This document shows positions 44,005-44,391 of a stretch of 64,000 nt of DNA, piece after piece. Origin of the DNA: Octopus vulgaris. Lineage: Eukaryota. The translations under genes were made by a program, and so were the position numbers. Each line of letters opens with the position of its first letter. The first letter of the stretch is position 1. The notes under the pieces are model-generated. The model was not told where the DNA came from. It searched no databases and saw only the letters and a program-made list of their open reading frames with translations. The stretch is from positions 43,028,001 to 43,092,000 of the forward strand of contig OX597831.1 of assembly GCA_951406725.2 (NCBI GenBank), written 5' to 3'.

Positions 44005-44081
44005 GACCTTTTTTTCTGTAGTTTTAGTTCAGAGCTGCAGCTATGCTGATGCACCGCCATTTGATATCTCCCAGGTGTGAA

Positions 44082-44265
44082 ATGGGCTGAATCCTGAAAG
44101 AACTGCAATACCAGGCCAACCCATGGCAAAGTCAGAGCAAGCCCCTAACACTTCACCTCGTTCTAAAAATCAAGTTAATATCGATGGCCCTAAATAGGGA
44201 CCGTATCAGATATTAAGCTGATAAGAACAGATACTACACATTGATCTTAGCCAAAAGGCCGAGAA
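44082..44265 (-). pseudogene. U2: U2 snRNA copy, near full length (probable pseudogene)
   Basis: Minus strand: TTCTCGGCCTTTTGGCTAAGATCAATGTGTAGTATCTGTTCTTATCAGCTTAATATCTGATACG..., Sm-like GATTTTTAG, and stem-loop IV loop TATTGCAGT. The canonical first 5 nt ATCGC are replaced by TTATA, and CpG-decay-type changes occur in the 3' stems. Confidence 0.93.
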
Positions 44266-44391
44266 TATAATATATCTATTAGTTAAGGTCATTGGCATAA
44301 ATGGTAAGAGCTTTAGGGAATGTTTGAACAATGGGTTAAAAAAATGGTAAAATGTGATCTAAGAGGCATCTTATGTAATCTAGAATTTTAA

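Follow-up and report, generated by a model that had tools for sequence, protein, structure and literature searches.

A decayed U2 snRNA copy joined to the 3′ end of a retroposon family at a single-copy locus of Octopus vulgaris

Background

Chimeras of the small nuclear RNA (snRNA) U6 with L2, Mon-1, RTEX and AnolisSINE2 have been described in platypus and lizard and attributed to template switching (Doucet et al. 2015, PMC4476161). In most platypus chimeras a 5′-truncated U6 precedes a short stretch of L2, with duplications measuring 1-9 bp, and 57 of the 58 human U2 copies in the table of that paper are 3′-truncated. For U2, Kojima (2015, PMC4494074) separated the SINEU families from a mere sum of chimeras by their uniform multi-copy structure, their shared deletions and the lack, in that account, of a LINE with the same 3′ end. 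Where a 3′ end is common to many retroposon copies, chimeras are expected to arise independently (PMC4494074), and this holds for the tail described here. In the accessible portions of the open-licence literature, including PMC4758252, PMC5786205, PMC4824008, PMC9115989 and PMC7245038, we found no snRNA chimera or snRNA-headed SINE from cephalopods.

Here, we describe a locus in which a U2 copy is followed, in the same sense, by the 3′ end of a retroposon. It lies in a 64,000-nt stretch of the Octopus vulgaris genome (assembly GCA_951406725.2, contig OX597831.1, positions 43,028,001 to 43,092,000), henceforth referred to as the window, and all positions below are those of the window.

Methods

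We aligned contigs of four (X1, X3, X4 and X5) of 24 listed public runs, representing three organisms, to positions 43985-44205, which cover neither the 5′ part of U2 nor the flank upstream of it. X1 was guessed to be RNA and X5 to be DNA, while X3 and X4 are unlabelled and were taken as DNA from their size. A total of 881 contigs aligned and 31 pieces were listed, 24 of them from the DNA runs. Short deep contigs fall outside the piece list, and copies more than 20% different from the window copy fall outside the alignment. Overlapping contigs each contribute to the summed depth, which is therefore no measure of copy number, and depth ratios are given as orders of magnitude. The reference for U2 was an intact-looking U2 gene of another animal on a metagenome contig (L001, positions 595-789, minus strand, 145 bits). 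The 24-nt tail pattern was built from the U2-linked copy in the window and the SINE motif.

Results

The locus comprises three parts, a U2 copy, a spacer and a retroposon tail, followed by an A tract and a SINE (Table 1). The U2 copy matches the Rfam model RF00004 at 44270-44077 (model positions 1-192) with 167.8 bits against a gathering score of 46 (E = 3.4e-35). This is the only Rfam hit in the 64-kb window, and the window holds no second U2. Comparison with L001 showed that the true match begins at 44265 with TTCTCGG (ATCGC-TTCTCGG in L001, TTATA-TTCTCGG in the window). Nucleotides 1-5 of U2 are missing or unrecognizable in the window copy, in agreement with an initial annotation of the window that had read U2 from about nucleotide 6 to its end on the minus strand.

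Table 1 Features of the U2-tail locus and its flanks
Feature	Positions	Strand	Evidence
U2 snRNA copy, nt 6 to end of last stem, decayed	44083..44265	-	Rfam and comparison with L001
Spacer, 20 nt; 44082-44065 is U2-linked 3′ flank	44063..44082	-	Depth and other U2 copies
Retroposon 3′ tail (stem-loop tail), 47 nt	44016..44062	-	Depth and loose ends of contigs
A7 tract	44009..44015	-	Sequence; loose ends
Neighbouring SINE of abundant family, head short by ~13 nt	43630..44004	-	Alignment with 4 other copies
AT-rich 5′ flank without recognizable U2 upstream sequence	44266..44385	-	Sequence and comparison
Dispersed AT-rich repeat, upstream of U2 copy	~44385-44560		~5 other window copies at 70-75% identity

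Over the Rfam model the copy is colinear and unbroken, with only two single-base insertions, and its last stem is identical to that of L001 at 41 of 45 positions. Its decay is apparent from the comparison with the contig majority, from which it differs at 10 of the 79 positions in 44096-44174, three of these differences being CpG-type. The extra base at 44240, ahead of the branch-point pairing sequence, is no proof of decay because L001 also has an extra base in that column. We expected a working U2 gene to have an intact 5′ end and a sequence equal to that of the homogeneous genes, and the window copy has neither. Its spacer, unlike the flank of L001, is not followed by a GTTT..AAA-type box. 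U2 promoters lie upstream of the gene (Kojima 2015, PMC4494074). Because they were not copied, the U2-tail locus is likely to be without function.

Two side observations concern U2 itself. In the U2 of L001, stem I contains an extra U and an additional A precedes the branch-point sequence; a hairpin stands right behind the 3′ end of this U2. At 44107, in the last loop, an A is present in 59-79% of the U2 depth (ATAGCAG on the RNA strand); the window copy and L001 have the usual ATTGCAG. Noted together with position 44101, this may reflect two U2 subtypes in these genomes.

The tail comes from the 3′ end of a distinct, multi-copy family of retroposons that has its own upstream sequence. In the DNA runs, the summed depth at 44009-44024 is, as an order of magnitude, 284-477 times that of the single-copy contig. 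At 44025, another base accounts for about 98% of the depth, in each DNA run on 67-82 contigs, and lengthens a CAGCTC/GAGCT hairpin. Contigs leave the window sequence at 44062 (12, 14 and 22 in the DNA runs and two in X1) and at 44058 (8-10 contigs), and an X1 contig with its own upstream sequence (record 5) matches the tail at 32 of 34 nt. Members of the tail family also end at 44008-44011, in AT-rich flanks. The 3′ part of the locus accordingly has a source of its own, which bears out the initial reading of a U2 fused to a SINE/LINE-type 3′ tail.

That reading had also assigned the tail to the abundant SINEs of the window (its family A), and here we came to a different view. The 24-nt tail motif has 12 matches in the window at ≤3 mismatches, against none in 100 shuffles. 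The U2-linked motif agrees with the majority of the 19 other window tail motifs at 19 of 24 positions, close to the 20 of 24 first estimated. Outside the motif the sequences differ, as had been noted for the upstream side: without gaps, they agree at 3 of the 20 nt upstream and at 3 of the 19 nt downstream. In the abundant window SINEs another hairpin follows the shared 24-nt core, and the window holds no second copy of this tail variant. We conclude that the tail family is a sister of the abundant SINEs' tail and not that SINE family itself, given the different hairpin and the close match of the X1 contig.

The loose ends at 44058 and at 44062 show low agreement (0.49-0.63), which suggests that many members of the tail family are cut near 44058-44062 and that very short tail-only inserts lie in (TA)-rich or AT-rich sites. 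As a separate observation, at least three further upstream sequences were seen joined to this tail, each with its break at 44058-44062.

Searches for the tail elsewhere were negative within their scope. The pattern is absent from the metagenome and viral contigs searched, and the motif is in none of the 37 proteins related to reverse transcriptase (RT) that were examined. The partner motif has no match in the searched part of the supplement of the octopus LINE paper PMC9115989, which is no evidence either way. We found no support for a LINE open reading frame (ORF) whose end forms the tail: one open frame crosses the 30-nt loose end and stops in the hairpin, and 10 open codons, as in that frame, arise by chance about 6 times in 10.

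The spacer, by comparison, goes with U2, because its depth is about that of the U2 body and because it recurs behind other U2 copies. Summed depth at 44065-44080 in the DNA runs is, again as an order of magnitude, 50-113 times that of the single-copy contig, similar to the U2 body. In X4, it is 324-331 over the spacer and about 300-317 at 44129-44160 in the U2 body. Records 9 and 17 represent one other U2 locus in two organisms, matching 44066-44199 without gaps and with 19 differences. They finish at a contig end (44066), 30 nt past a private base, a pattern that we read as a merge with the shared path. A depth step of one copy at 44129-44131 points to a probable third U2 copy that reaches 44065 or beyond. 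In X4, a loose end at 44083 shows the same flank shortened by one base, and this variant could form a 5-bp hairpin. The spacer is U2-linked and common to U2 copies in general, and it is most simply the normal 3′ flank of U2 genes. It is likely that 44082-44065 represents an extension of pre-U2 RNA. The vertebrate pre-U2 extension is about 10-16 nt, and the 20 nt found here is longer.

The initial annotation had counted about 22 nt between the end of U2 and the tail motif, and 22 nt do separate 44080 from the motif at 44058. It had also set the chimera against the normal flank of U2 genes as the competing source of the downstream sequence. The chimera reading gives way to U2-linked flank at 44082-44065, whereas it holds for the tail, which is not U2 flank and matches a retroposon 3′ end. 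Folding of the decayed copy's tail or spacer is no better than that of shuffles (z of 0.24, -0.34, -0.42 and 0.57), and the tail of the neighbouring SINE gives a z of about -1.8. In L001, the hairpin directly behind U2 is followed by the GTTT..AAA-type box; as a single case with a z of -0.8, it offers a loose parallel only.

We then assessed how often the junction of U2 and tail is seen. Three of the 24 listed DNA pieces bridge it (records 8, 16 and 24, one per organism), and all three are the window locus, with 3-4 differences and single-copy depth. The fused locus is single-copy in the three organisms. No second bridging contig was present among the 24 listed DNA pieces, and the table of joints was empty. 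Two of the other pieces run to 44066, 11 break off at 44078-44090 and continue with 29-661 nt of unlike sequence, six stop inside U2 and two finish at contig ends at 44083-44085. Six of the 11 pieces that stop near the U2 end, from about four loci, have 73-661 nt of flank, which is enough for a tail, and there is none in them. Other members of the fusion are unlikely because diverged ones of this age should give long bridging contigs at the top of the list. Among the 24 listed DNA pieces only the window locus has the junction, which leans away from a uniform multi-copy structure and towards a one-off event. Of the two origins first proposed, a template-switch copy or a U2-headed SINE, the chimera stands, with the snRNA 5′ of a retroposon 3′ end in the same sense; the SINE family has so far gained no support, since the junction is bridged only by the window locus among the listed pieces.

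A small U2-headed retroposon family is nevertheless the alternative that we weighed most closely. It would require a master U2 gene in which an inserted tail, 20 nt downstream, had taken the place of the 3′ box, and a promoter-driven read-through RNA copied several times by a partner LINE. This would account at once for the included genomic flank, and the position of the junction at the edge of the minimal tail also fits. At least one other dispersed, diverged U2 copy has the spacer to 44066, its match stopping at 44199, the probable third copy reaches 44065, and the depth of the spacer could conceal young members. The missing second bridging contig and the empty table of joints speak against it. 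So does the deep near-uniform U2 path, which most simply represents working U2 genes, necessarily present in the runs. A shared internal rearrangement of the kind reported for SINEU-3 (PMC4494074) is absent, and a protein query with the translated junction, a weak test, gave no candidate. We therefore regard this family as unlikely. If it did exist, it would be a snRNA-headed SINE outside the crocodilians and would show transcription without an internal promoter, a question that Kojima (2015) left open.

The flanks bear on the number of events. After the tail, the initial annotation's A7 followed by a SINE without its first ~14 nt was confirmed, the missing head measuring about 13 nt. Four bases without assignment separate the A7 from the start of the SINE, which has the same orientation as the U2 unit and 86% identity to the copy at 49134-49489. 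The SINE is probably a separate insertion from the U2-tail unit. The join into it is also present in an X1 contig (record 1) that spans the whole aligned stretch with one difference; this difference, at 44025, could be an allele or A-to-I editing, which are indistinguishable. Because X1 is RNA by guess, we do not take this contig as evidence of transcription. Like the flanks of copies of the tail family, the 5′ flank of the U2 copy is AT-rich.

In a shuffle test, the surroundings of the U2-tail unit gave no target-site duplication above chance, nor did the aligned contigs, which cover little of the flanks, show an empty site. The best candidate after the A7 is 5 nt long, a length reached in 1338 of 2000 shuffles. 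The best after the end of the SINE is 7 nt long (149 of 2000 shuffles), lies away from the U2 start and is one base off the tail repeat of the SINE itself. The failure of any duplication to bracket the whole unit would suit an origin in two DNA-level steps, with a U2 pseudogene or duplicated fragment and its flank in place first and a tail-only retroposon insertion behind it later. The region has taken several insertions, and the poor agreement of the loose ends suggests many tail-only insertions in AT-rich sites. However, chance adjacency of the two parts without targeting comes to about 3 in 10,000 by a hand estimate (480 tails × 110 U2 copies × 25 nt, both strands, with a genome of ~2.5 Gb guessed from the sizes of the runs), a figure that favours a single switch. 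The parts also share one orientation, the bases ahead of the tail are not (TA)n, and the U2 start is cut as in reverse transcription. We consider two DNA-level steps quite improbable.

In another single-event route, a cleaved pre-U2 RNA would first have been ligated to a tail fragment and the product then reverse transcribed; in yet another, the downstream SINE would have been part of one tripartite event. Ligation by RtcB makes U6/L1 chimeras (PMC6789731). Such ligation needs a 2′,3′-cyclic phosphate, which is the normal end of U6, and the ligated U6 is full length, whereas this U2 is without its first 5 nt. Tripartite chimeras have been reported from a fungus (PMC2104539), and the SINE here lies 4 nt from the A7 in the same orientation; yet several window SINE copies are without part of their head where no U2 is present. 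Taken together, these routes appear very improbable.

We found no host gene in the window: Pfam, run on 116 of the 213 non-repetitive window frames, gave nothing at cut-off. Further repeats were observed in passing. A second, different SINE-like element with a tRNA-type head lies at 44560-44860 on the minus strand and is 89% identical to 20201-20420. At 29436-29807 on the plus strand there is a decayed fragment of a non-LTR retrotransposon ORF, up to 59% identical to RT-bearing proteins, which we take to be R4/Dong-like; no link between this fragment and the tail of the U2 copy was found. Long low-complexity arrays at 9757-10727 and 12145-13339 (TA/CA-type and trinucleotide-based) give rise to long spurious open frames.

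Discussion

On balance, we favour the reading that the decayed U2 copy, about 18 bases of U2-linked flank and the last 53 bases of a retroposon family form a one-off snRNA-retroposon chimera that arose by a single template switch. We infer the following order of events. The RT of a partner element would have primed at an AT-rich site with the stem-loop tail of a stringent LINE, or of its SINE, as template. It may have copied 53 nt and then released at the base of the conserved tail (44058-44062), where many family members also leave the window sequence. It would then have switched, perhaps via a few shared bases, to an unprocessed U2 RNA that reached ~18-20 nt past the mature end. Copying would have run to U2 nucleotide 6, 5 nt short of the cap, with integration leaving no clear duplication. 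Decay of the copy and the insertion of the SINE at the A tract would have come later.

Besides the low probability of chance adjacency, a single switch is favoured by the finding that, in each of the four runs, contigs of the tail family depart at 44062 into upstream sequence of their own. Several points weigh against it. After 44065, the sequence of most U2 copies lay beyond the short high-depth contigs, and the locus of records 9 and 17 or the probable third copy could continue into the tail. SINE bodies also join where the junction sits, on the 5′ border of the conserved tail, and a selected family would show this too. Lastly, the unit is without a target-site duplication and the 20-nt extension is long.

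The locus extends snRNA-retroposon chimeras from vertebrates to a mollusc and to a near-full-length U2, a modest advance for a single fossil. It seems to record a 3′-extended U2 RNA as template and so to mark how far octopod pre-U2 runs. A template switch of this kind has also been proposed as the starting point of SINEU families, here at copy number one. Finding several copies of the junction in the genome, or a master U2 gene followed by the tail, would raise the importance of the locus.

Among known systems, the locus resembles the platypus and lizard U6 chimeras (PMC4476161) in placing a 5′-truncated snRNA before a short fragment of a retroposon with a stem-loop tail, in the same sense and with a small or absent duplication. 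Unlike in those chimeras, the snRNA is a nearly full-length U2 that continues ~18 nt past its mature end, and the host is an invertebrate. Human U2/LINE-1 and U2/Alu retrocopies (PMC11838501; PMC4494074, citing Garcia-Perez 2007) likewise have U2 5′ of a retroposon 3′ end in one insertion. L1 uses poly(A) and leaves clear duplications, whereas the octopus locus has a structured tail and no duplication. The LINEs Keno and Utopia likewise bring retroelement sequence next to U2, but they split U2 internally (PMC4494074; PMC4640811), whereas the octopus U2 is intact in this respect and is followed by the tail.

The crocodilian SINEU-1, SINEU-2 and SINEU-3 (PMC4494074) are similar in their U2-derived 5′ part, their shortness, their lack of an internal promoter and their retroposon-type end. 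They number hundreds to thousands of uniform copies with shared deletions and a target preference for Mariner-N4, and in that description no LINE shares the SINEU-1 3′ end. At the octopus locus, one junction was seen, U2 is whole and the tail is common to an abundant family. The U2 head is present as in SINEU, but there is no shared rearrangement, and hundreds of tails without U2 represent separate elements with the same 3′ end. In our reading, the locus works like the founding event of a snRNA-headed SINE, although we do not class it as one.
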